From positions 240,001-272,000 of the forward strand of contig CP113000.1 in assembly GCA_026625185.1 (NCBI GenBank): a stretch of DNA of 32,000 nucleotides, written 5' to 3'. Position numbers and translations under genes: made by a program. Every line of letters starts with the position of its first letter. Position 1 is the first letter of the stretch. Under the pieces are notes generated by a model that did not search any database, was not told where the DNA came from, and saw only the letters and a list, made by a program, of their open reading frames with translations. Below are positions 5,336-32,000 of the stretch, in pieces. The DNA is from Thermodesulfobacteriota bacterium (GTDB lineage Bacteria > Desulfobacterota > WTBG01 > JAGOGO01).

Positions 5336-5369
5336 AAAAAGGCCGCTATCTTTCTTCAAGATAGCGGCC
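5336..5369 (-). terminator. Intrinsic terminator (minus strand)
   Basis: Perfect 10-bp stem: ggccgctatc (5341-5350) pairs with gatagcggcc (5360-5369). On the plus strand it is preceded by aaaaa, which is a T-run on the minus strand. Confidence 0.75.
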
Positions 5370-5494
5370 CGACCATCAATCAACCTCCAGAAATGATTAC
5401 CTTTTCTGGACCCTTAAAAATTATTTTTATACATTTTTAAATTTAATACTTTTTTATATATTTTCCCCATTCCCTTGTCAAGTATATATTAACT

Positions 5495-7014: not shown

Positions 7015-7120
7015 AACCCGACACTTAACCCTAAAATTTAAACCGTAATCCATAGAACTATCCGCAACCAGAAAACAAAAATGGATTAGTGAAAACCGCT
7101 AACCCATTGAAATTACAAGA

Positions 7121-7163
7121 GGCGGCACCCGGATTCGAACCGGGGTATAAAGGTTTTGCAGAA
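7121..7163 (-). repeat. tRNA-Cys(GCA) 3-prime fragment, att core copy 2 (junction of elements 1 and 2)
   Basis: Same 43 nt as 1098-1140 apart from one variable-loop base (7146). It has no 5-prime half and no terminator on its left flank. Confidence 0.75.
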
Positions 7164-7393
7164 GAAATTTTAGAAATAAAATTAAATAAATTCAATATGT
7201 TATCTTGCAAAGATTGTCAAAATTTTACCGCAAAAAGTAACCTATCCGACACCGATTTCCGCAATTTGCAAATGGAAGCAAAAATTGAGATAAAAAACAT
7301 CATATTGTGTAATTAGGGAGATATCTTCGACAAGACGGTTTTCCCCCAGATCGCTTTCCCCGGATTAATAACAGGAGTTCTACGGGAGGCCCC

Positions 7394-11987: not shown

Positions 11988-12150
11988 AAGGAAACTCCTC
12001 CTTCTATTTGCCTTTAGCAATGCACTATAAGCTACAAATATTTACTAATTTTAATGCCAATTGGCGTTACTTGTCAAGATAATAACCGTCAATAGCCTCT
12101 GGTATTCACTCATTCTAAAGTTTATAAACCTTAAAAAAGGAGAAAACGGA

Positions 12151-12489
12151 ATGAGTGACATCAAGGCAATTCTAGGAGCAAGAATCCGTAAGCTAAGAAA
12201 AGAAAGGAGGCTATCTCAAGAGGCATTGGCGGAAAAGGCCAACCTTCATTACACTTTTATTGGGGAGGTTGAGCGAGGCGAAAAGAACATCTCCTTAGTG
12301 AGCTTAGAAAAATTAGCTAAAGCTCTCGAAGTAACCCTTATAGACCTTTTTGATTTGCCTGAATTAAAGGAAAGGCCAAATGATTTCAAAAAGAAGCTCA
12401 CCCAAGAAATAAAAGGCTTCGATGACGAAACAGCAGGGGCATTGTTGAAACTGATTAAAACCATTAAATTGGCTAAACACCGAAAATAA
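12151..12489 (+). CDS. XRE-family helix-turn-helix transcriptional regulator (112 aa)
   Basis: AAGGAG RBS, then ATG 12151. IRKLRKERRLSQEALAEKANLHYTFIGEVERGEKNISLVSLEKLAKAL is a classic HTH_3 pattern. The track ORF starts upstream at a TTG, which I reject. Confidence 0.85.
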   Translation: MSDIKAILGARIRKLRKERRLSQEALAEKANLHYTFIGEVERGEKNISLVSLEKLAKALEVTLIDLFDLPELKERPNDFKKKLTQEIKGFDDETAGALLKLIKTIKLAKHRK

Positions 12490-12537
12490 GCTCCTATGAG
12501 CCATAAAGATAACTTGTAGGAAAATTTTAGCAATCAG

Positions 12538-14685: not shown

Positions 14686-15756
14686 TTATGCAGTGCCTAC
14701 ATTTTGCATCCCTGTATTTAATATTTCCAGCATACTTTTGTGAATCTGCTGCCAGGGTTTATTTAAGTTAATAGTCCTTATCATTAACTTATGGCCGCTC
14801 ATCATGTAGTTAAGGTTAACTTCATTACTTACTGTTGGATAGAGTAATAGCCCGGTGCACTGCCCACTAATGTCATTTTTTGCCTCTATATTTTTCAGGT
14901 ATGCAAATATTTGATATAAATTTTGAGAATGAATTTTTTCCTGATCATAATACTCCGCAAGAGCTTCTTTATAATATTTTGCATCAATAATCATCTTAGT
15001 AGTGTTTGATTTAATGGAAATATCAGTTGTCATTTTGGGCAGGTACGAACCAGAAATTTCATCCAAGGCGGTTACATTCCAGCTAATATCCTCACGCCCC
15101 ACATGATAATAGGGTGCTTCTATGATGTAAAATTTTCGTATAAACTCCTCAAAAAGCCCCGCCATTTGTCGTTCATCGCGTAGAAAGTCGCGAAATTTAC
15201 TTTTGCCTGGTTCTTCAGAAACCAATAAGTTATCATAAACTAATTCACATATTTTCAGTAAAAAATCATAAAATGAGTTGTTTTGATGCAATTGCACACG
15301 GTTAAAAAGTACCCCTGTAAGTTTTATGCCATCAATTTCGTGGAGACGACGATAAAGACCAATGAGCTCATTCTTTAAAGTTTTATCTATAGCTTCAATA
15401 CATATCAATTCCCATATGGTTGATTTTATGATTCGATTATGGAGAATGTTGTGGCTGAGTTCATCATATTCACAATGAACTTGAGCCTTAATTAAAAGAT
15501 TACGTTTTATGGTATGATTAAAACTGAATTTTCCTTTTAATGCGCAGGTATCCTCAGAAAACAATAAATAACCTCTATCCAAGCCCCTTTTAAGTAAATG
15601 GTTCATACCTCCGAGTAATACCTTTGAAAAAAGATCAACAAGGTTTGTCGTATCTATTCCGCTAACATTTACCACATCACGCTCGTCGAGCTTATTCCAA
15701 GCATAACAAAGGAGGTAATAAATGTTTTGTATTGGAATCGTTGTGGCGATGTTCAT
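14686..15756 (-). CDS. mcrC: McrC-like subunit of a type IV (modification-dependent) restriction system (356 aa)
   Basis: The N-terminus IQNIYYLLCYAWNKL is typical of McrC. A C-terminal PD-(D/E)xK-type motif lies around MIIDAKYY. 4-nt overlap with mcrB. Confidence 0.85.
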   Translation of the reverse strand: MNIATTIPIQNIYYLLCYAWNKLDERDVVNVSGIDTTNLVDLFSKVLLGGMNHLLKRGLDRGYLLFSEDTCALKGKFSFNHTIKRNLLIKAQVHCEYDELSHNILHNRIIKSTIWELICIEAIDKTLKNELIGLYRRLHEIDGIKLTGVLFNRVQLHQNNSFYDFLLKICELVYDNLLVSEEPGKSKFRDFLRDERQMAGLFEEFIRKFYIIEAPYYHVGREDISWNVTALDEISGSYLPKMTTDISIKSNTTKMIIDAKYYKEALAEYYDQEKIHSQNLYQIFAYLKNIEAKNDISGQCTGLLLYPTVSNEVNLNYMMSGHKLMIRTINLNKPWQQIHKSMLEILNTGMQNVGTA

Positions 15757-18176
15757 TTTAGGAGAATACTTATTTCATTTTTTACTTTTTCTTGGTTATC
15801 AAACCAATACTCACAGAGCAGTGGTTCTATTTCAGAAACAATAATTTTCTTATACCAATTCTCATCATAAACCGTGCCTGTGTTCATTGGGCAAAAATAA
15901 CTATGACCAATTCTATAGCCGGGACCAAGATTTTTTGTGTCTTCACTTATTTTTTCATTCAACTGGCAAAGTCGTTGGATAATTTTATCTACAAGCTCTA
16001 CAGATACCCCCGAACTTCTTAAATACGTTTTAAATTTATCCCCTTCAAACATTGGTTCAAGGCCAATGAAACTAAATCGCCTTCTCAAAGCATAATCAAC
16101 CATCGCCAATGAGCGATCAGCTGTATTCATTGTTCCAATAATATGAATATTAGAAGGTATCCAAAACTGTTCATCAATTGTTTGTGAATATGTAAGTGGT
16201 AGAGCAAACTCTTTTCCCCTTTTATCGGCTTCAATTAAAAACATCAGCTCACCAAATATTTTACTGAGATTGCCACGGTTAATCTCATCAATAATAAAAA
16301 AATAGGAACTATTCTGGTCGGCCTGTGCAATTTTACAGAACTGGTAAAAAATACCATTCTTGAGCACAAATCCCCCACCATCTGAAGGACGGAAGCCCTG
16401 GATGAAATCCTCATAAGAATACGATTGATGAAACTGAATCATAGCGATTCGGGTTTCGTCTTTTACACCCAGCAAAGAATATGCTAAACGCTTTGCTAAG
16501 AAGGTCTTGCCTACACCTGGAGGGCCTTGAAGAATAATGTTTTTTTTATGCTGAAGTCGATCAAGGATATAGTTTAAGTAGATTTCATCTACAAACAAAT
16601 CTTTAAGAGCATCTGCTGTTGTATATTTAATAGTTGGCGGGTTAAGCGGTGGATTAAGTTCGTCAATAACAGATCGAATAATTTCATATTCAGATTCAGA
16701 AAGTTTGAACAGGCTTCCCTGATTGTTAACAATTGGTTCACATGATTTAAGCTCTTCAATGCCTTGCAACCTGCTTAATTCGACAGGTTGTCTGAATTGT
16801 TCAGTTTTTTCTAACTCAATTTCCTCTCCTCCATCAGATTCATGAAGGCCTTTAGTGATCTTGCACATGCCAACAATAGCTTTATCAGGGGAGGCAATAT
16901 ATCCCAAAACAACATCACCAGGTTTAACAACAGTAAAATGCTTATAAATTCGCCTTTTATTACCTTTTTCATTGTATGATGTATAAGTGATCCGGCCACC
17001 GATATTTAATTCATTAAAACTCCATATCTTGGGATTGGCATTCATCCACCAGTAATTAACCTCACCCGCATCAAACAAGGATTCTAGTGTCTCAAAATCA
17101 TTCTTTTCTAATTTAATAATGGTTCTGCCGAATTTTCCCTGCATATTTTCAGGAATTGGAACTCCTTCATGATTAACCTTGTAGTATTTAACTTTAACAG
17201 TGTGCCTATATTCATTACGATTGGGATTAAATATATATCCACTTAAAACTTCCCCAGCGGCCAAAAGATATTTTCTTCCCTTGTTGGTGATAAATTTATC
17301 ACCCGGTTTTATAGTTAAAAAATGCCAAAGCATTGCAACTGAAGCAGTTAATTCTCCGTCTGTATTATTTGGATAATATTTTTTTATTAAGGCTGTAAGC
17401 TCATCCTTTGATTTCCCAGCGAGGTCAGCGTTGATTTCATCCCAGCCAATCGCAGCAATAGAATTTGAATATAAGTCATCCCATAATCTTGCTTGCTCAC
17501 CTGGAGCAATTTGCCAGTAGCTAATCTGAGAAGGAGGTGGTGTTGGCTCTCCTTTTATTTTATTTACCATATCGATTCCTTCTTTTTCCGCACTGATGGT
17601 GTGTAAGAAAGCGTCAACATTATCCAATGTCATATTTAAATCGGGTCTTAACTGGGGAATTTTATTTAGCAGGGTCAAGACCTTTTCATATATAACACCT
17701 TTTGAATCACCTCTATCACCTGCTTTCCAACCAAGCACATCAAATCCCATTTCCGTTTTATGGTTCCATGCACAATACTTATCGGGATTAAAGTCACTAA
17801 GAAATGCAGTAAGAATACCTCTGCCAAACCCACTGATTTTATAACCACCATTTAATATTTCATTTATCCTTTCTTTAATGTCTATACTTTCATCTAACAA
17901 GTAATAAATTGTTTTTCTAAATTGATTTACATCTCTAATGATTCTATCTCTTTGTATTTTGTTAAGATTTTGTTTGTCGCCTACGTTACTATTAAAATAT
18001 TGCAAATAGCGTTCTTTTAATTCATCATCTTGCATTGCCTTTATCACATTAGGCTGAATCCATTTGTGATTTTCCTCAATTCCTTTTTTTCTTTTTTCTC
18101 CCCATGTCTTCAGCATATTCGATTCATTTATAAACCAGCCTAAAAGTTCCTTTATCTGTTCATCTGTTAACCCCAT
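15753..18176 (-). CDS. mcrB: McrB-like AAA+ GTPase with a long N-terminal extension containing PUA/EVE-like modules (807 aa)
   Basis: Walker A LQGPPGVGKTF, Walker B FFIIDEINRGNLSKIFGELMFLIE and the McrB signature MNTADRSLAMVDYALRRRF. The N-terminal ~500 aa includes YWWMNANPKIW...VKPGDVVLGYIASPDKAIVG (EVE-like) and YWQIAPGEQARLW...IKPGDKF. Confidence 0.9.
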   Translation of the reverse strand: MGLTDEQIKELLGWFINESNMLKTWGEKRKKGIEENHKWIQPNVIKAMQDDELKERYLQYFNSNVGDKQNLNKIQRDRIIRDVNQFRKTIYYLLDESIDIKERINEILNGGYKISGFGRGILTAFLSDFNPDKYCAWNHKTEMGFDVLGWKAGDRGDSKGVIYEKVLTLLNKIPQLRPDLNMTLDNVDAFLHTISAEKEGIDMVNKIKGEPTPPPSQISYWQIAPGEQARLWDDLYSNSIAAIGWDEINADLAGKSKDELTALIKKYYPNNTDGELTASVAMLWHFLTIKPGDKFITNKGRKYLLAAGEVLSGYIFNPNRNEYRHTVKVKYYKVNHEGVPIPENMQGKFGRTIIKLEKNDFETLESLFDAGEVNYWWMNANPKIWSFNELNIGGRITYTSYNEKGNKRRIYKHFTVVKPGDVVLGYIASPDKAIVGMCKITKGLHESDGGEEIELEKTEQFRQPVELSRLQGIEELKSCEPIVNNQGSLFKLSESEYEIIRSVIDELNPPLNPPTIKYTTADALKDLFVDEIYLNYILDRLQHKKNIILQGPPGVGKTFLAKRLAYSLLGVKDETRIAMIQFHQSYSYEDFIQGFRPSDGGGFVLKNGIFYQFCKIAQADQNSSYFFIIDEINRGNLSKIFGELMFLIEADKRGKEFALPLTYSQTIDEQFWIPSNIHIIGTMNTADRSLAMVDYALRRRFSFIGLEPMFEGDKFKTYLRSSGVSVELVDKIIQRLCQLNEKISEDTKNLGPGYRIGHSYFCPMNTGTVYDENWYKKIIVSEIEPLLCEYWFDNQEKVKNEISILLK

Positions 18177-23939: not shown

Positions 23940-25871
23940 TTATGTCATTGTGACCTTTCGGGCATGATTAAGTATTCCCACGCACAATTTTTCCAACAAA
24001 CTTGATTTGATGCCCTCATTCCACATATTTTCCAACGTTGCCGAAATTACTAATGGATTCTTCCGACGAACGCCATCCGACAGGGAGTGCTCTTGCCTCG
24101 CTTTTAACTCAGCATTATCCCACTTCTCTTGGCCAATCTCGGCTACAATCTCATCTTGTATCCGAGTGCACCACATTACCAGTGACTCAGAAAAATAGGT
24201 TGAATCGGGTAAGGGATTAGTTTGAAGGTTACATAGATTCAAAATGCACTGATTATCAGTCTTGTGTCTAAATTTTTCCTCTCCAGTCGCTTTATCACAG
24301 TCACCATCAAAAATAACATATGCAGGAATTCCCAAACCTTTAGCAATGGCCAAAGGCCGACTAAGGTTAGTTTTCCCGCCGCATACAACAAAATGACACC
24401 CGCAGCGTCTAAATTCAGACCATTTACCGCTTAGATGTAAATGAGTTGTTATGAACGCTATATCCTCTGGTCCCTCCACTAATACTGGAATCTGTGAGAA
24501 AAAAAGTTCATTTTGGGAAGGCTGCATGATTTGTTCAACAGCCGCCATTATTGATGTTGGGGACGAAGGATCCCCTCCAAGTGCTTTTGAAAGACTTGAT
24601 GACAGCGTTTGGTAAGTTAGGTGGGTCACAATGGTTTTACCGTCTGGTCCGGCCGACCTTGTCATCCTAACGCCTTCAAATCCTTTTGCAGAGATAAAAT
24701 ATGGACTATGAGTTGTTACTATTATTTGAGCATCACCTTTGGAAAGTTCATCGAGCAATGAAGAGAGGTGGCGTGCTTGTGGAGGGTGCTGGTAAAGTTC
24801 AGGTTCTTCAAACCCAAGTATTAAAGTGGGTTGTTCGCCTTCGTGAGTCGACGATAAAACTTGCAATAGCGCCACAATGAATGATCTTTGCATGCCATGG
24901 CCGACTCTAACCATTTCACCAAGAAAAGCACCTTCTCCAATTTTGGCCCTTGCCATAGGATCCGCTACCGATACCGATTTTGAATCATCATAGTGCCAGA
25001 GTAGTTCGACACGAGCTCCTGGGTGCGACCATGCACGCAGTCTCTCTTGGATGGTCTTCCCGATATCTAGCAATATATCTTGTTGGTCCTTTAATAGTTC
25101 TTGGTATTTCTGCCCCATTTCACGTCGCAGTTCTTCTAAAGGGTCTTTGAAATCAATCTGTGATCTGATAGTCCTTTGTAATAACGTTCCGAGAGCAGTA
25201 TTTTTCCCCTCTTGTTGCTCTTCTGTTGGATCTTTCACTGCTGGAATATAGACCCATTGACAATGCTGCTCAAGTAGATTAGCACCTTTGCTCCAACCAT
25301 AAAACTGATCATTACTCTCAACTGGCTCACAAAGTTTAGGGTGTTCTTCCTCATATTTTCTCAAAGCTTGTTGCATGGCATCTTTTGTTGTAGCCGCATC
25401 GATATCTGAGTATTTTTCACGGATTTCTTGAAAAATGTTCTTTAGATCACTAACTTTCGTACCTTCTTTTTCAGCTCTGAAATATTTTGCGAAGTCTTTT
25501 ATTATCTCTCGTGATCCAAATTGTTGGACTTCGGCTGTTTGCGTTTCTTTGTTCCATTCAGCCCTAGCAGATAAAATGAGTTTGTTTTGCCTAACATAGG
25601 CCTTTAAATCTTCTTTCGCTTTTTCTGAAAGATCAGTAAAAGTCGCTGTAATGGTAATTGGCTGCTCAACCTTTTTTAGATGGAAATCCTCTTCGACCAG
25701 AGTGACAACGTTTGATGCAGCTTGAGTGTTTCTAAAAAGAATATTCAAGGCATTTAGTACGGTTGATTTACCAGAGCCATTTGGTCCCACGAAGCAAGAG
25801 TAATCACCAAAATCTATCGTTTCGTCTTCGAATGAACGGAAATTTTGAATGCGAAGTTGGGAAAGCTTCAT
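23940..25871 (-). CDS. OLD-family ATP-dependent nuclease (ABC-type ATPase plus C-terminal Toprim), 643 aa
   Basis: GGAGG RBS before ATG 25871; the track ORF starts 27 codons upstream. MKLSQLRIQNFRSF, Walker A FVGPNGSGKST, Walker B-like LILGFEEPELYQHP, and Toprim motifs VLVEGPEDIAF and YVIFDGDCD. Confidence 0.85.
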   Translation of the reverse strand: MKLSQLRIQNFRSFEDETIDFGDYSCFVGPNGSGKSTVLNALNILFRNTQAASNVVTLVEEDFHLKKVEQPITITATFTDLSEKAKEDLKAYVRQNKLILSARAEWNKETQTAEVQQFGSREIIKDFAKYFRAEKEGTKVSDLKNIFQEIREKYSDIDAATTKDAMQQALRKYEEEHPKLCEPVESNDQFYGWSKGANLLEQHCQWVYIPAVKDPTEEQQEGKNTALGTLLQRTIRSQIDFKDPLEELRREMGQKYQELLKDQQDILLDIGKTIQERLRAWSHPGARVELLWHYDDSKSVSVADPMARAKIGEGAFLGEMVRVGHGMQRSFIVALLQVLSSTHEGEQPTLILGFEEPELYQHPPQARHLSSLLDELSKGDAQIIVTTHSPYFISAKGFEGVRMTRSAGPDGKTIVTHLTYQTLSSSLSKALGGDPSSPTSIMAAVEQIMQPSQNELFFSQIPVLVEGPEDIAFITTHLHLSGKWSEFRRCGCHFVVCGGKTNLSRPLAIAKGLGIPAYVIFDGDCDKATGEEKFRHKTDNQCILNLCNLQTNPLPDSTYFSESLVMWCTRIQDEIVAEIGQEKWDNAELKARQEHSLSDGVRRKNPLVISATLENMWNEGIKSSLLEKLCVGILNHARKVTMT

Positions 25872-26067
25872 TTCAGAACCTCCGAATCTCAATCGTAATA
25901 AAAAAGAATAACCTTGCGTTTCGATGGTTGTATGCCAAGAGCAACTTTCCAATTACGCAATTTTTGACTAAGATTTCAAAATCAAAAAATTGTGCGCATT
26001 AACAATCGACCGCAAACGGTTTGTTATTTGTTCTTAACATTCTTGCATAAAAGTAGTAGCTGCTTAA

Positions 26068-27303
26068 TTATTCTTCTATTGTTTTATCAGGTAATTGCAG
26101 TAAATCCGTTTGGAGTGATTTACCAGCTATTCCCTTAATTGACCCGAATAGAGCTGAAATATTTTCTTGAACCACCCAGATTTGTTTCTCTCTTTCAGCC
26201 CAAATTTTGTGCATTGATTTTTTCTCTGAATTTAGCTGGTTAATCATGCCTTCATAGTTTTCTACAATTCTTTTTATGTTTTGCACAAATTCATTGCTGG
26301 TAAGGTAGTTGTAAAGTAATTCCATCTTGTCACCTTTGTTTTCTTGCGACAGTTTTACAGAATTGATTTTTATTAACATTTCTCGAAGAACAAAAGATAG
26401 ACTCTTAACTTCGTAAAAACTACAAATCCATACACCGTTTTTTTCTCCGAATCTATCCATATCCACAGGGTAAGTTTCAGTAACAATTACAGCAAGATCA
26501 GCCTTGCAAATAATCTGGTCTTGCTTTAATTTGTCTATCCAATCATTCGCAAAATTTTTAGTACGCTTGCTTTCATAAACTATCAAGCCACATTTATGCT
26601 GATTTGAATTAATAACAATTTGTATTGCATCTGCACCACGGACCCCTTTTGGCACTTCTTCAATTGTGTCAAATGGATAAGTTCGAGATAAAAGATCTTC
26701 AAGCGCCAATTCTTGAACTTCACCCTGAAGTTGCATAGAACCCTGCTCTGCTTTCCGTTTCATCTCTTCAGCTAGTTTCTTGTTGTCTTCAATTTGTTTG
26801 AGGAGTTTTACTTTTTCAAGTTCAAAACTTTCTCTTTCCTTTGCTCGGGCTTTATCTTCAATTTCCTTCTGTCTTTCAAGAAGTTGCTTTTCCATTTGCA
26901 AATTCAGGTCTTCTTGCTTTTCTTTTAACTCTGCTTCTTGTTTTAGAAAGGCAACTTCTTTTTCCTTAAGAGACTTATTTTCAGCTTTTCTTTTTTCATT
27001 CTCTTCTTGAAGAGCTTTTATTTTTTCTTCCACTGATTCAAGCACATTTTTTTCAATCTTCGATTTTTCTTGTTCAAGTTTTTTGGCTAGTTCAGTTTGA
27101 AAAAGTTCACCTTCCTTTTCTCGCTGTTGTTCAAATAACCGTTTTTCTTCTTCAAGCTTTCGTTTTTCCTGATTGAATTTTTCGGCTTGTTCAGCCACCT
27201 TCTTTTCATATTCAGTTTTAAAATGAGCTTCTAGTTTTCCCGAAAGCGCTTCTTCAACATTAAAGCTGTGTCCACAGTTAGGGCATTTGATTTCATTGTT
27301 CAT
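26068..27303 (-). CDS. DUF2130-like protein: N-terminal zinc ribbon, long coiled coil, C-terminal PD-(D/E)xK-like domain (411 aa)
   Basis: MNNEIKCPNCGHSF, then about 180 aa of E/K-rich heptad-like sequence, then GADAIQIV...GLIVYESKRTKNF (a D...ExK pattern). Confidence 0.7.
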   Translation of the reverse strand: MNNEIKCPNCGHSFNVEEALSGKLEAHFKTEYEKKVAEQAEKFNQEKRKLEEEKRLFEQQREKEGELFQTELAKKLEQEKSKIEKNVLESVEEKIKALQEENEKRKAENKSLKEKEVAFLKQEAELKEKQEDLNLQMEKQLLERQKEIEDKARAKERESFELEKVKLLKQIEDNKKLAEEMKRKAEQGSMQLQGEVQELALEDLLSRTYPFDTIEEVPKGVRGADAIQIVINSNQHKCGLIVYESKRTKNFANDWIDKLKQDQIICKADLAVIVTETYPVDMDRFGEKNGVWICSFYEVKSLSFVLREMLIKINSVKLSQENKGDKMELLYNYLTSNEFVQNIKRIVENYEGMINQLNSEKKSMHKIWAEREKQIWVVQENISALFGSIKGIAGKSLQTDLLQLPDKTIEE

Positions 27304-27447: not shown

Positions 27448-27488
27448 AAAAAAAGGCCCATCACCTTTGTATCTGGCAATCCGACCTT
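27448..27488 (-). terminator. Repeat-family terminator hairpin, copy C (downstream of the 650-aa gene)
   Basis: The minus strand reads GGTC GG ATTGCC AGATACAAA GGTGAT G GGCC TTTTTTT. Confidence 0.75.
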
Positions 27489-27886: not shown

Positions 27887-29839
27887 TCATTGGTTGTCGG
27901 AATTGATGCGTTTGTAGACCTCTTCGTTGTTCAAGCCAAGAGCTTTTTGAAGTTTTTTAAGCAAATACGCTTCTAGCAACGAAGACAAGCGATTCACGGG
28001 GTCAATGATTCTGAAGCCGGAAATATGGTGCGCGATGTTAAGTGCAATTAGCAATAATCCGAGAATGCCGGACAGGACGCGCCAGAAAATGCTGGCTGTA
28101 GGCGGTTCGAAGAAAGGGCGATACGAATAGACAAGAAAAAAGATCGCGATTATAATTAATGCTGCACGCACTACAGCGGGCACCAGATGTGCAAGACGCC
28201 GAATGTTGTGTTCTACATTCGAAACCTTACTTTCGCTGACAGTTAGTCTCTGGAGGGCTTTTTGGTGATCGGTACCAACTTGATTGAGTTGGTCCATCAA
28301 GGGGCGTGTAATTTCTTGCTCATGCTGGGCAAGGATTTGCAGTACAATTTGTTCGCTGACTTCTTCTTCGTCCCCCAGGGTCAGGTTCATAAGTTCATCA
28401 CGTACTCGGAGCTCATATCTGAGATATTGATGTTGCTCCGGCGTGATTGTTTTGTCGTTGCGGAGTTTGTCCAACTCGGCCAAGAACTTGTTCCATAGTT
28501 GCTCGGAAGGTTTCAGTATGCTGTAGCAGTGAGCGAGAAGGAGGTGCATGGGGACATTAGGGTTTTTCAAAGGGGACTTGACCCAAACAATATTGGTGAG
28601 ACTGAAGTCAGTTATGACCGGAGAAACATTTTTGAATTCGTGGTACCCACGCCCGTAAGCATACGCAGCCCGGGCAAGAGCTGCGTTATTAGTTAGAACT
28701 AGTGCACGAGATTCCTCAACCCGCTCTGGCGAACTACCTGCTCTCAAAACATACGCACTACGAACAGAGTTGACATCTGCCTTTTTTGCTATTTCGCTGC
28801 GATATTGGAGGCCAACAGCCTCCATTTCTTTCTCCAAGGCGACTTCATCGATCTGATATTTCTCGACGTAACTGGGGGTTTTCTTGATTTGGATCCCTTC
28901 GTCATCCAGGAGATTCTTAATTCGTGCACGGATGAGCGCCACATCGCTTGGCGACATTCCAGCGTCCCGGAGCGCTACTATTACATTGCCGTGCCCTCCG
29001 CTCGGCATTTCGAGATAACGCTCTGCATTCCTGAGGACATGATCAGTTTCTTCCAATGTATGAGAAAATATTTTAAGCTGGGCACCAGCATCCTTGAATA
29101 GATGCAAGATTTCTCGTGTGTATGCCTTGATTTCCTTTCCAACTACCCCGAGTGTTTGCAGGATGAGGGGTGTATCAATATAGATTGCTGTATCTCGGAA
29201 CTTGGCTCCCAGACCAGACAGGTCGGAAGCGAGCAGAGCATTAACAAGCATTCTGCCAGTGAGCACTGTCACGAAATACCGGAAAAGATCCGGTTTTTTT
29301 GACGATATGTGGTTCGCAAATCTGGAAACGATGAACCTCCAGTGCAGTGGCTGACTCCCGCGAATCGGAACCGTAGTGCCTGAAGTGAATGATGCAACAC
29401 ACTCAATGGAGTATTCATCAATGTAATTCAGGAGCCCTGACTCACAATCAGCCTCCGTGAGGTCTTGTCCAAGTTCGTCGCGTGTATAATCCTTAAGATT
29501 GAGGACAACTGCGCGGTAATGAGCCTCCAATTCGGCCTGATTTTTTTTAAACTCTTGTGGTTGGCACTTGATCTTGACGACGAGATACAACTTGTTGTCC
29601 CGCTTGACGATTCTACGTTTGCACATACGCGACAGGAAAAGCTTTACGGTGGGTAAAGGAAGATCGAGGCCAAAATCATTTATGAGCCAATCTTTGAGTT
29701 CCTCTGGTGAAAAACGGTTTGGTGAGTGGTTGAATAGGCACACCTCTGCAAAACAGATGAAGGCGTCAACGATATCACGCTTCTCGAGGTCGAATCTCGC
29801 CTTGAGAAGTGCCAAGCTTGTTAGCGTAACTGAAAGCAT
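27887..29839 (-). CDS. Orphan 650-aa protein: wHTH-like N-terminus, PIN-like central region, coiled coil, two C-terminal TM helices
   Basis: GGAG RBS. KLFLSRMCKRRIVKRDNKLYLV (wHTH-like). AIYIDTPLILQTLG, FSHTLEETDHVL and ALVLTNNAALARAA give a tentative PIN-like acidic pattern. Hydrophobic helices VVRAALIIIAIFFLVYSY and VLSGILGLLLIALNIA. Confidence 0.8.
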   Translation of the reverse strand: MLSVTLTSLALLKARFDLEKRDIVDAFICFAEVCLFNHSPNRFSPEELKDWLINDFGLDLPLPTVKLFLSRMCKRRIVKRDNKLYLVVKIKCQPQEFKKNQAELEAHYRAVVLNLKDYTRDELGQDLTEADCESGLLNYIDEYSIECVASFTSGTTVPIRGSQPLHWRFIVSRFANHISSKKPDLFRYFVTVLTGRMLVNALLASDLSGLGAKFRDTAIYIDTPLILQTLGVVGKEIKAYTREILHLFKDAGAQLKIFSHTLEETDHVLRNAERYLEMPSGGHGNVIVALRDAGMSPSDVALIRARIKNLLDDEGIQIKKTPSYVEKYQIDEVALEKEMEAVGLQYRSEIAKKADVNSVRSAYVLRAGSSPERVEESRALVLTNNAALARAAYAYGRGYHEFKNVSPVITDFSLTNIVWVKSPLKNPNVPMHLLLAHCYSILKPSEQLWNKFLAELDKLRNDKTITPEQHQYLRYELRVRDELMNLTLGDEEEVSEQIVLQILAQHEQEITRPLMDQLNQVGTDHQKALQRLTVSESKVSNVEHNIRRLAHLVPAVVRAALIIIAIFFLVYSYRPFFEPPTASIFWRVLSGILGLLLIALNIAHHISGFRIIDPVNRLSSLLEAYLLKKLQKALGLNNEEVYKRINSDNQ

Positions 29840-30066
29840 ATCAACTCCATCTGTCCGCTTACTGTTTGGTCAGAAGCCGGTGTATATTGTATGGCTGCAA
29901 CAATTTTATGCCTAATCAGGAAAATTATCAAAACTTTTATCAACAACCCTATTAAAAAATGTCGGCTTTTTACACAGAAGGCGACAGCAAAATGACTAAA
30001 CTTTAATGGAACCAGTCAGAAAGGGAAAAGAGAAAAAGAAAACCCTGCAGTGTGTGCTTGCCTTTA

Positions 30067-30232: not shown

Positions 30233-30862
30233 ATGACAATAGAACCCAAAAAAGAAGAACCTAAAAGAGGCAACATAAACCATCCCCCAAAAGGTTCCAT
30301 AATCAGGGTTGATCCCATTCGGGAAGAAAAAGACATCAAGGCGATAAGAAAACTTCTTGCCGACAATCCCCGGAACCACCTACTTTTTGTAATGGGGATT
30401 AATAATGGTCTGAGGGTGGGGGATTTATTAAAGCTTAAGGTCGGAGATTTACGGGGAATGAAACCCGGAGACTCTATCACTATCAAGGAGGGAAAGACTG
30501 GAAAGCAGAATATCCTGGTCATCAACAAGACCGTTCATAAAGTCCTTAGTGAATTCTTATCAAGTGCCAAAGTTGAAGATGATGACTACTTATTTAAAAG
30601 CAAAAAAGGCAACCGTGCTTTAACCATCCCAGCAGTCAATGCTCATATAAAGAAGTGGACATCAGTCATTAATCTTAAAGGCAAATTTGGTGCGCATTCC
30701 TTAAGGAAGACTTGGGGCTTTATCCAGAGAACTCATTATGGTGTTGGTTTTGAGCTTATCTGTAAGCGGTTCAACCATCAAAGTCCCGCAGTTACTATGC
30801 GCTACCTTGGGATTACTGATAAAGAGGTGCAGAATATTTTGACCAATAATGAGATTGGTTAA
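30233..30862 (+). CDS. Small (209 aa) tyrosine recombinase, catalytic domain only, FimB/FimE-sized
   Basis: Catalytic contexts NGLRVGDLLKLK (R), KEGKTGK (K), GAHSLRKTW (HxxR), NHQSPAVTMRYLG (H...Y). There is no SAM-like core-binding domain. Confidence 0.8.
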   Translation: MTIEPKKEEPKRGNINHPPKGSIIRVDPIREEKDIKAIRKLLADNPRNHLLFVMGINNGLRVGDLLKLKVGDLRGMKPGDSITIKEGKTGKQNILVINKTVHKVLSEFLSSAKVEDDDYLFKSKKGNRALTIPAVNAHIKKWTSVINLKGKFGAHSLRKTWGFIQRTHYGVGFELICKRFNHQSPAVTMRYLGITDKEVQNILTNNEIG

Positions 30863-30880
30863 ACAAGGAGGTGAAAAAGA

Positions 30881-32000
30881 ATGGGCGTAAAAGTTAGGGA
30901 AATGAAAAAAGGTGAGTGGTGGATTTTTATTTACCATCACGGAAAACATAAAGCCAAAAAGATAGGTAGGGATAAGAGGGTAGCATTAGAGGTGGCTAAG
31001 AAAATTGAGGCTAAGCTTGCTTTGGGGGAAATGGATTTAGAAAAAATGAAAAAACGTGTTCCGACCTTTAAGCAATTTGTTTATGGTTGGGAAGACCATG
31101 AAGGCATGCATCCGGGCTGGTTACATTCCTTGGCAGAGTTATCATTCAAAAATTCAACGCGGACAGGTTATAAGAATATTTTAAGCCGTCATCTTATTCC
31201 TACCTTTGGAAATAACCCCCTTAATGAGATAAATTCGCGCCTGGTTAGCGATTTTACTTATAGGCTTTTCAATGCGAAGTTAAGAAGCGGATCGGTAAAA
31301 AATATTAAGAACTGTCTCAGTTCTATTTTAAGAAAGGGCACCCAGGACGGCTATCTTGAATCAAATCCAGCGCGAGGTGTAAGTGTGCCAAGACCTGAAG
31401 GTGAGCGTTCATTTAGAGAGCCTTGTCCCTTTACCTGGGAAGAACGAGATCATTTTGAATCTACTTTTAAAGAAAAGTTTCCAAGATATTATCCCCTTGT
31501 TGTTTGTGGGTTTAGAACTGGGCTAAGAATCGGTGAGCTTTTAGGGTTACAATGGGGTGACATTGATTTTTTTAATAAGATTATTCTGGTTCAGAGAAAT
31601 ATTACCTTGGGAAAGATCACAACCCCTAAGACCTTATCCAGTAAAAGGATGGTAAGAATGACAACTAACCTGGTTGAGATTTTGGAAAAGCACCGCCAAA
31701 GGATTATCGAGGAAAAGTTAAGAAAAGGCTGGAAGGAAATGCCGGAGTGGGTTTTTGTCAACCAGATAGGTTCGTTTGTTAATTATGGCAGATTCGTGAA
31801 TCACTACTGGCACCGTATAATAACGCTTTCAGGTTTGAGCCGAAGAACACCGCACGACATGAGACATACTTATGCTACCTTACGATTGAGCAAAGGGGAT
31901 TCACTGGCAGAGGTTAGTAAAGAAATGGGACACGGAAACACGGATTTGACGTATAAAACTTATTATAAATGGTTGCCAAAAGAAAGCAGAACGAACATCG
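30881..32000 (+). CDS. int: Phage-type tyrosine integrase with an arm-binding-type N-terminus; partial, runs off the right edge
   Basis: Absent from the ORF track because it is open at the edge. AAGGAGGTG RBS, then ATG 30881. My translation gives MGVKVREMKKGEWWIFIYHHGKHKAKKIG... then RTGLRIGELLGLQWGDID, TPHDMRHTYATL and GHGNTDLTYKTYY. Confidence 0.85.
   Translation, partial: MGVKVREMKKGEWWIFIYHHGKHKAKKIGRDKRVALEVAKKIEAKLALGEMDLEKMKKRVPTFKQFVYGWEDHEGMHPGWLHSLAELSFKNSTRTGYKNILSRHLIPTFGNNPLNEINSRLVSDFTYRLFNAKLRSGSVKNIKNCLSSILRKGTQDGYLESNPARGVSVPRPEGERSFREPCPFTWEERDHFESTFKEKFPRYYPLVVCGFRTGLRIGELLGLQWGDIDFFNKIILVQRNITLGKITTPKTLSSKRMVRMTTNLVEILEKHRQRIIEEKLRKGWKEMPEWVFVNQIGSFVNYGRFVNHYWHRIITLSGLSRRTPHDMRHTYATLRLSKGDSLAEVSKEMGHGNTDLTYKTYYKWLPKESRTNI

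Follow-up and report, generated by a model that had tools for sequence, protein, structure and literature searches.

What is made from the gene at positions 27887-29839, on the minus strand, of the 32,000-nucleotide (nt) stretch of Thermodesulfobacteriota DNA analysed here (contig CP113000.1; the whole stretch is called the window)? Its product of 650 amino acids (aa) had been described, from the letters of the DNA, as an orphan membrane-anchored protein with a winged helix and a PIN-like middle part, and as a candidate for a new single-gene defence or abortive-infection effector. The open reading frame (ORF) and its good ribosome-binding site are confirmed, with GGAG found 5 nt before the ATG. 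The explanation that we favour, and regard as fairly probable, is that the gene encodes a stand-alone, membrane-tethered PIN-like nuclease that serves in defence against phages and other mobile elements. As a new single-gene defence system it is a credible candidate, of which the nuclease activity and the phenotype are putative.

The evidence for the fold comes from structure prediction. An AlphaFold2 model was built on a 51-sequence alignment of the family (mean predicted local distance difference test score, pLDDT, of 82.3 over the full length), and residues 200-430 were modelled separately as the core (pLDDT 89.3, predicted template modelling score 0.87). When the full-length model was compared by Foldseek, the only high-probability compact matches were PIN domains, namely Mycobacterium tuberculosis VapC (7vwo), PAE0151, PAE2754, HARP RNase P and AF1683, in agreement with the PIN-like core of the original prediction, and the best viral match was a protein named ‘PIN like domain’ (E = 5.4e-3). 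For the core-only model, the best nine matches in the Protein Data Bank (PDB) were all PIN domains, with probabilities of 0.98-1.00, target-normalised template modelling scores of 0.57-0.64 and E ≥ 0.014.

Some conserved residues of the family are candidates for a PIN active site. The candidate residues are D222-T223 at the end of β1, E264 in the helix after β2, T383-x-N385 after β4 and D411 after β5, and the motifs IYIDTP, HTLEET and LVLTNN, which had been singled out at the outset, coincide with the invariant or nearly invariant D222/T223, E264 and N385. Further invariant residues of the core are D299, D355, R366, N416, W419 and K421. In plasmid homologues with only 20-24% identity, D222, E264, D355, R366, W419 and K421 are kept, position 223 is T or S, position 385 is N and position 411, which is nearly invariant in the family, is D or E, and the conserved-residue pattern of the Firmicutes-type branch agrees with that of these plasmid homologues. 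Independently of the model, the Enterococcus homologue matches Pfam PIN_3 below threshold (E = 5.6e-4; residues 226-283 on profile positions 1-56), and PIN_3 is the most recurrent match in the divergent branch (3 of 20 members; best E = 4.9e-4, ∼21 bits against a cut-off of 27), where these sub-threshold matches fall exactly on the β1-α-β2 segment. One member of the divergent branch also matches PF01850 (E = 0.031).

Several results speak against a PIN nuclease. The Foldseek E-values are weak, being 0.014 at best against the PDB and 0.005 among viral proteins; none of the scanned members reaches the curated Pfam threshold for PIN; and the alignment of the core by hhalign with a three-sequence VapC alignment, made from the fetched loci, is not significant (probability <1%), so that it was used only as a hint for the register. 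The canonical third aspartate of PIN domains is the D of T-x-N-x-x-D-F in VapC motifs. It is absent here, where T383-x-N385 is followed by the non-acidic A-F, and catalysis is not assured because of this loss, for which the invariant D355 or D299 might stand in, judging from conservation. We regard the assignment to a PIN-like fold as well supported and the catalytic competence of this core as plausible.

The other parts of the protein were delimited in the same model (Table 1). The first ∼90 residues, which had been thought to form a winged helix, show helices followed by a β hairpin (helices 3-19, 23-38, 45-56 and 62-74, strands 78-81 and 84-87), which is the winged-helix topology, and faint Pfam winged-helix matches appear there in a few members (SelB-wing_2 in four, Penicillinase_R in two). 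The motif TLTSLAxLK at the extreme N-terminus is strongly conserved, and the putative recognition helix is basic (FGLxIP...R71, with P61 invariant and R71 conserved); the conserved columns of this domain are T5, S8, L9, A10, K13, F56, G57, P61 and R71. In the helical region that follows the core, Y439, P444, H470, L473-R474 and TLGD at 487-490 are conserved.

The C-terminal part is also as it had been described, that is, a heptad-rich stretch and then two hydrophobic helices: the model has one helix over residues 496-576, and the hydrophobic segments lie at ∼548-576 and 582-607. Residues 496-547 are poorly conserved in sequence, with a variable and gappy alignment, and match weakly to a methyl-accepting chemotaxis coiled coil (E = 0.04); in the model this stretch is probably a coiled-coil or stalk. 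A hydrophobic C-terminal region occurs at about the same position in all 51 aligned members, 42 of which show two separate peaks. Its position is kept while its sequence is not conserved, and thus it reads as an anchor. Since the large soluble part does not start like a signal peptide and only ∼5 residues (577-581) join the two segments, we infer a hairpin with the N- and C-termini both in the cytoplasm. In an Enterococcus faecium plasmid copy (locus L090, 7947-9761), the 604-aa protein is without the membrane hairpin that its relatives of 639-662 aa keep; this copy stops 57 bp before an IS16 transposase gene and may have been truncated by the IS16 insertion.

The hairpin could itself be the killing device. 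The PIN-like core would then be a sensor, and once it had bound nucleic acid or protein of a phage, oligomerisation through the stalk would permeabilise the membrane, as is supposed for the two-transmembrane effectors of CBASS, Pycsar or SLATT type. Such a role would suit a hydrophobic hairpin placed after the long helix in every aligned member and a core that is missing the third acidic residue; one member (P0046) faintly matches the PADLOC model RTasSLATT (E = 0.0055), and in defence systems transmembrane proteins are often regarded as suicide effectors (PMC9122126). However, D222, E264, D355 and R366 do not vary down to 20% identity, which speaks for chemistry rather than for binding alone, the transmembrane sequences are not conserved, and scans of 71 members gave no Pfam SLATT family. 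An identification of the hairpin with SLATT has the single faint match in its favour and no support from Pfam. We consider a pore-forming killer quite unlikely.

Is the protein an orphan, as had been proposed? For annotation it is. The window protein had no match at E ≤ 10 in Pfam, NCBIfam or PADLOC (PADLOC-DB v2.0.0), as expected from the earlier statement that it could be assigned to no named family, and its single match in PHROGs (E = 1) is meaningless. Ten diverse members of the family, those of Escherichia coli and Klebsiella included, gave only noise against PADLOC (E ≥ 0.005), 51 members gave nothing usable and no PIN match in Pfam, and sequence and profile searches of the PDB returned only a coiled-coil chemoreceptor (E = 0.04) and noise. 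The public name of every homologue is ‘hypothetical protein’. For relatives, on the other hand, the word orphan does not hold, since the family counts at least 5,500 clusters at 50% identity. Homologues of conserved length, from close to distant, numbered 60 in a word-indexed search, and exhaustive profile searching gave 5,542 representatives (50% identity) at E ≤ 0.001, of which 2,586 have E ≤ 1e-30, nearly all aligned end to end over ∼640 aa.

In a scan of species-representative genomes, the family was found in Proteobacteria, Chloroflexota, Planctomycetota, Acidobacteriota, Nitrospirota, Verrucomicrobiota, Bdellovibrionota, Gemmatimonadota and other phyla. Its distribution over these genomes is patchy, with two copies in one genome. 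The window's gene is also richer in G+C than its flanks, as had been noticed before (0.472 against 0.346 and 0.379, with 0.397 for the whole window), and this contrast together with the patchy distribution marks it as accessory cargo. The gene belongs to a large, horizontally mobile and unnamed family. Searches of the literature for the architecture and for the protein accessions gave no description in main texts, and the sole mention is one row of a supplementary table.

The neighbourhoods of the homologues were then surveyed in 87 non-redundant loci, in which ORFs were called and clustered and recurrent neighbours were ranked, with positions counted over 84 species-level loci. The largest neighbour clusters, named from the Pfam annotation of example loci, are subunits of type I restriction-modification (R-M) systems: HsdS in 34 loci, HsdM in 26 and HsdR in 23, plus 5 with HsdR fragments. 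A type I subunit lies within 10 kb in 36 of the 87 loci (41%). The order is strict, with HsdS at position -1 in 28 of 84 loci, HsdM at -2 to -4 and HsdR at +1 in 13 loci and also at +2 to +5, and type I subunits are almost never at other positions among the ∼1,300 neighbour ORFs. The gaps to HsdS and HsdR are mostly -4 or -1 nt, so that stop and start codons overlap on both sides, which indicates translational coupling with hsdS and hsdR. When all neighbour ORFs of the 87 loci were clustered, no conserved partner gene was found other than the type I subunits. The further recurrent neighbours belong to the accessory cargo that is typical of type I operons: HEPN (NTase_sub_bind), Schlafen/AlbA_2 with HATPase_c_4, DUF1016/YhcG, GmrSD and a large methylase with a UvrD helicase. 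PIN-like nucleases transcriptionally coupled to hsdM, hsdS and hsdR were already recorded in a survey of the PIN superfamily (PMC5499597); the R-M-coupled PIN toxins of that survey (Matelska et al. 2017) are small, of VapC or DUF4411 type and recognised by Pfam models, none of which detects the present family, and the survey does not record this family.

Three observations on single loci are given here for completeness. One Dehalococcoidia genome (OY763929.1) carries two paralogues (L067 and L085), each directly after hsdS. In two Bdellovibrionales genomes (L053 and L054, 11908-13633), after the homologue come a Peptidase_M78 (IrrE-like) gene and then an ORF of 163-166 aa that starts with MPYLLDSNIF and, from its sequence, looks like a small PIN/DUF4411-type protein. 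In L097/L098, at the margin of a prophage-like block, a ubiquitin-like gene (PF00240/Rad60-SLD; 12077-12502) separates the homologue from hsdM.

The place between hsdS and hsdR suggests another explanation, namely that the protein is a guardian of R-M systems like PrrC, silent on the type I complex and released as a nuclease once a phage anti-restriction protein disables the enzyme. In favour of a guardian, the order hsdM > hsdS > X > hsdR recurs across phyla, and the gene directly follows HsdS in the 28 loci counted above; the overlaps on both sides imply co-translation with S and R, and prrC, the classical restriction guardian, holds the equivalent position in the EcoprrI type IC locus, a nuclease-type gene between hsdS and hsdR as in a third of the family's loci (PMC12707154). 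However, in about 60% of the loci no type I gene lies within 10 kb, the copies on plasmids and in prophages are solitary, and the window's copy and its entire clade have no type I linkage, so that, in contrast to PrrC, most family members are not linked to R-M systems. Moreover, unrelated cargo (HEPN-MNT, Schlafen, DUF1016 and GmrSD) is found in the same operons, and hence the S-R junction may be merely a tolerated insertion site. Nor is there any sequence or domain similarity to PrrC, with no P-loop and no HEPN: PrrC is a soluble P-loop NTPase joined to a HEPN-like nuclease, whereas the domains of the family are unrelated to these and its structural matches are to PIN and not to HEPN. A guardian of this kind fits the R-M-embedded clade best, and for the gene in question we think it unlikely. 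To the same low degree, we would credit the broader idea that the family is a second and far wider class of R-M guardians after PrrC, co-translated with HsdS and HsdR in many bacterial phyla; the membrane-tethered PIN nuclease would monitor the type I enzyme, or DNA as it enters at the membrane, and would fire once phage anti-restriction proteins disarm that enzyme, and stand-alone copies such as the window's would be derivatives with autonomous triggering. The embedding between hsdS and hsdR nevertheless offers a tractable test of whether restriction guardians are common or PrrC is a curiosity.

Copies outside R-M operons return us to a defence nuclease that works alone. Homologues are present on 11 plasmids, those of Enterococcus faecium, Klebsiella (e.g. 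WP_258336611.1) and Pantoea included, as solitary ‘hypothetical proteins’ between insertion sequence (IS) elements and resistance genes. Among 5,426 complete E. coli genomes, 2 have a homologue, WP_204691543.1 and WP_096936374.1, both within P2-like prophages. These solitary plasmid and prophage copies bear out the proposal of a single-gene unit. In E. coli FDAARGOS_1337, the homologue stands between the genes for the tail sheath and for tail fibre assembly as the sole non-structural gene, at a position which we take to be the Z/fun locus of the P2 map. The Z/fun locus and sites within the tail genes are known defence hotspots of P2 (PMC13586616, PMC9122126). An independent prediction also exists, since the other of the two E. 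coli proteins, WP_096936374.1, appears as ‘Predicted novel defense gene’ in Table S10 of the machine-learning screen DefensePredictor, with a mean log-odds of ∼8.9 against a stringent cut-off of 4; it shows no homology to known proteins of defence and is not one of the systems validated in that work (PMC13092281). The family is thus shown to be defence-island cargo, carried in type I R-M operons, P2-like prophages, plasmids and integrase-flanked islands, and the antiphage setting that had been supposed for the gene is borne out by the type I subunits near 36 of the 87 loci, by the P2-like prophages and by the DefensePredictor entry.

The window itself presents the last of these settings. Upstream of the gene are the genes of two tyrosine recombinases (30233-30862 and from ∼30880 to the end of the window), downstream are a DUF2130 gene and then an OLD-family gene (23940-25952), and farther along are a type III R-M system and an McrBC pair with an EVE domain in McrB. 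The gene thus lies between the integrases and the OLD module, as originally stated, with the DUF2130 gene in between, and because recombinases, OLD, type III R-M and McrBC-EVE surround it, its setting is an integrase-flanked defence island. Its neighbours (DUF2130, OLD, type III R-M and integrases) include no type I R-M genes.

In a neighbour-joining ordering of 85 family members, the R-M-embedded copies fill one large part, interleaved with stand-alone copies, and the window protein belongs to a different clade that shows no type I linkage. Since this clade has no R-M linkage, we take the window's copy to act on its own. The contexts in this clade include a prophage edge adjoining a type I system, HicAB with an HSDR_N_2 gene, a serine recombinase and islands of unannotated ORFs. 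Two findings here count against a role in defence: many copies of the clade are inserted singly between housekeeping genes (e.g. RNR, PEPCK, UvrA and cytochrome b561), so that fewer loci underlie the link to defence in the clade of the window protein itself, and a collection of phage records gave no homologue. Unexpectedly, in five loci of the clade (L004, L006, L036, L042 and L044), the homologue lies directly 3′ of ribonucleotide reductase (RNR) genes, co-directional and with gaps of 36-214 nt (at ∼10001 in L004, L006, L042 and L044, and at ∼2350 in L036). The RNR are of different classes, and the hosts are Verrucomicrobiota, a gammaproteobacterium (Methylovulum miyakonense HT12) and metagenome contigs; this adjacency may reflect an insertion hotspot or a tie to nucleotide pools.

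Such contexts could also fit a non-immune function, in which the protein is a membrane-tethered factor for the regulation or maintenance of mobile DNA, whether as a sequestered winged-helix repressor, in addiction or exclusion, or in RNA processing tied to nucleotide metabolism. Besides the five RNR loci and the several copies amid housekeeping genes, the conserved winged-helix-like head with its basic helix and the copies on resistance plasmids between IS elements are in keeping with it. However, the strongest and most ordered association of the family is with restriction systems, both E. coli copies are in P2-like prophages, the patchy phylum distribution and the G+C contrast point to accessory cargo, and a regulator needs no invariant acidic constellation in its PIN-like core. 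We therefore regard this function as improbable, more so than either of the two alternatives above.

If the protein is a membrane-tethered defence nuclease, as we favour, the following mechanism can be proposed. A dimer or oligomer would probably be formed through the stalk helix, and the PIN-like core would be a metal-dependent nuclease that stays inactive until infection. RNA would be its likelier substrate, because the RNases VapC and HARP are the best structural matches. The winged-helix domain, together with the conserved motif at the N-terminus, might gate the active site by binding nucleic acid or a protein of the phage or host, while the membrane tether would position the nuclease at the site of genome entry or away from the bulk of host nucleic acid. 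Cleavage would then halt phage development, through abortive infection or through an attack on the nucleic acid of the phage close to where it enters.

Among known proteins, PIN domains of VapC type (PAE2754, 1v8o; PAE0151, 2fe1; M. tuberculosis VapC, 7vwo; Rickettsia felis VapC2, 3zvk) and HARP RNase P (7og5) are the best and only convincing structural matches of the family. They share with it an alternating β/α core with Asp-Thr at the end of β1, Glu in the helix after β2, T-x-N after β4 and Asp or Glu after β5. Unlike VapC, which has ∼130 aa, the present protein has 650 aa with ∼100 aa of helical insertions in the core, is fused to a winged-helix-like head and a membrane hairpin, is without an adjacent antitoxin, and has neither the canonical third aspartate nor a match to a curated PIN profile. 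A VapBC type II toxin-antitoxin system was rejected on the grounds of the 650-aa length, of the lack of a recurrent small neighbour among 87 loci and of the solitary plasmid and prophage copies. A winged-helix nuclease of the type IV (m6A-dependent) restriction class was set aside, since the nuclease fold and the membrane anchor are unfit for that class and no result of this analysis supports it.

Two validated defence proteins are similar in part. SNIPE is a nuclease bound to the membrane, whose tether prevents self-damage, and like the present protein it combines in a single chain a membrane anchor, a domain that putatively binds nucleic acid, an elongated helix and a nuclease (bioRxiv 10.1101/2025.11.03.685801). 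It has, however, a single N-terminal transmembrane segment, DUF4041 and a C-terminal GIY-YIG domain, in contrast to the soluble N-terminus, PIN-like fold and C-terminal two-transmembrane hairpin of the family, and with neither DUF4041 nor GIY-YIG matched by Pfam in the window protein and 51 members, no sequence relationship to SNIPE was detected. DS-3 (PIN8, WP_022645725.1) is a validated single-protein split-PIN defence (PMC13092281), which resembles the family in being one gene with a PIN domain interrupted by a large insertion and without a cognate antitoxin, but it has 340 aa and is soluble, unlike the membrane-anchored family. Homology to DS-3 was rejected, since hhalign of the family profile gave a probability of 0.14 and E = 0.43 over 21 aligned columns outside the PIN core.

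PIN single-gene defence, membrane-bound nuclease defence and R-M-embedded nucleases are thus each known, and their combination found here is in no database model or paper. The earlier view that a membrane-tethered nuclease would be an unusual architecture therefore stands for this combination and not for membrane tethering as such, of which SNIPE is already an example (bioRxiv 10.1101/2025.11.03.685801). If validated, the family would add a widespread defence gene outside current annotation and defence-finder models, with at least 5,500 clusters at 50% identity in many phyla and with E. coli, Klebsiella and Enterococcus plasmids and prophages among the carriers. It would also be the first PIN-type nuclease joined to a membrane anchor and would extend membrane localisation as a means of self/non-self separation, and Pfam and the defence databases would gain a new family, and the PIN superfamily a new and very divergent branch.

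Table 1. Features of the gene and of its product, with positions in the window

Feature	Position	Strand	Evidence
ORF, 650 aa + stop codon, ATG start	27887..29839	-	ORF list; member of unannotated ∼640-aa family
Shine-Dalgarno GGAG, 5 nt before ATG	29845..29848	-	Read directly from the sequence
Sigma-70-like promoter match TTGATA-17-TAAAAT, 64 nt 5′ of ATG	29903..29931	-	Scan, consensus match only, 10/12
Hairpin then U-tract, possible intrinsic terminator, ∼400 nt past stop codon	27439..27492	-	RNA fold, dG -17.6 kcal/mol, z -2.24
Winged-helix-like N-terminal domain, residues 1-90	29570..29839	-	AlphaFold2, pLDDT 76-93
All-helical linker, residues 94-203	29231..29560	-	AlphaFold2 helices 94-123, 129-153, 167-181, 183-203; pLDDT ∼85-95
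Diverged PIN-like α/β core, residues 205-425, ∼100 aa of helical insertions	28565..29227	-	AlphaFold2, Foldseek, invariant columns
Helical region after core, residues 431-487	28379..28549	-	AlphaFold2 helices 431-442, 446-462, 467-476, 479-487
Long helix into membrane, residues 496-547	28199..28354	-	AlphaFold2 single helix 496-576, pLDDT 43-87
Predicted transmembrane helix 1, ∼residues 548-576	28112..28198	-	Kyte-Doolittle 19-residue windows up to 2.78
Predicted transmembrane helix 2, ∼residues 582-607	28019..28096	-	Hydropathy windows up to 2.06; AlphaFold2 helix 584-607
C-terminal amphipathic helices, residues 612-649	27893..28006	-	AlphaFold2 helices 612-633, 638-649

Local signals add little to this picture. 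The number of sigma-70-like sites around the ORF is not above shuffled expectation in the promoter scan, and an Rfam scan of the gene's flanking non-coding DNA gave nothing. The gene had been credited with its own copy of a repeat terminator (27448-27488). This claim was not confirmed, since the hairpin there (Table 1) has no second copy in the window at ≤3 mismatches and is absent from the window's direct-repeat families, lies ∼400 nt past the stop codon and was not called in the terminator scan.

Several neighbours of the gene deserve a short description. The OLD-family protein (AAA_15 with an OLD TOPRIM domain) has AriA and Old as its best PADLOC models, and the DUF2130 protein before it, which is without a PADLOC model, has 411 aa, starts with CxxC and contains a long helical stretch rich in Lys and Glu; the two genes (module region 23940-27303, minus strand) may form a two-gene module. 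In the McrBC-type pair (14686-18176, minus strand), the 807-aa McrB-like protein consists of EVE and an AAA_5 motor, and its N-terminal region matches the PADLOC candidate PDC-S02. The second and longer tyrosine-integrase-like ORF (∼30880-32000, plus strand) runs past the window end with 375 aa visible, and clusters with the integrases of two surveyed loci (L005 and L083).

Farther from the gene, a 77-nt direct repeat with 88% identity was found at 1097-1173 and 7120-7196. Over its first 25 nt, the repeat is the reverse complement of the T-arm and acceptor 3′ end of a tRNA (GGTTCGAATCC...), and by its sequence the pair looks like attL and attR of an integrated element of ∼6 kb; ARAGORN found no intact tRNA in the window. 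An nhaA-I riboswitch (Rfam RF03057) lies at 5359-5413 on the minus strand, matched over the full model length with 44.9 bits against a gathering score of 37. Finally, two 55-nt near-tandem repeats with 89% identity (1507-1561 and 1603-1657), both ending in TAAGGAG, are located just 5′ of the ORF at 1665-2021.

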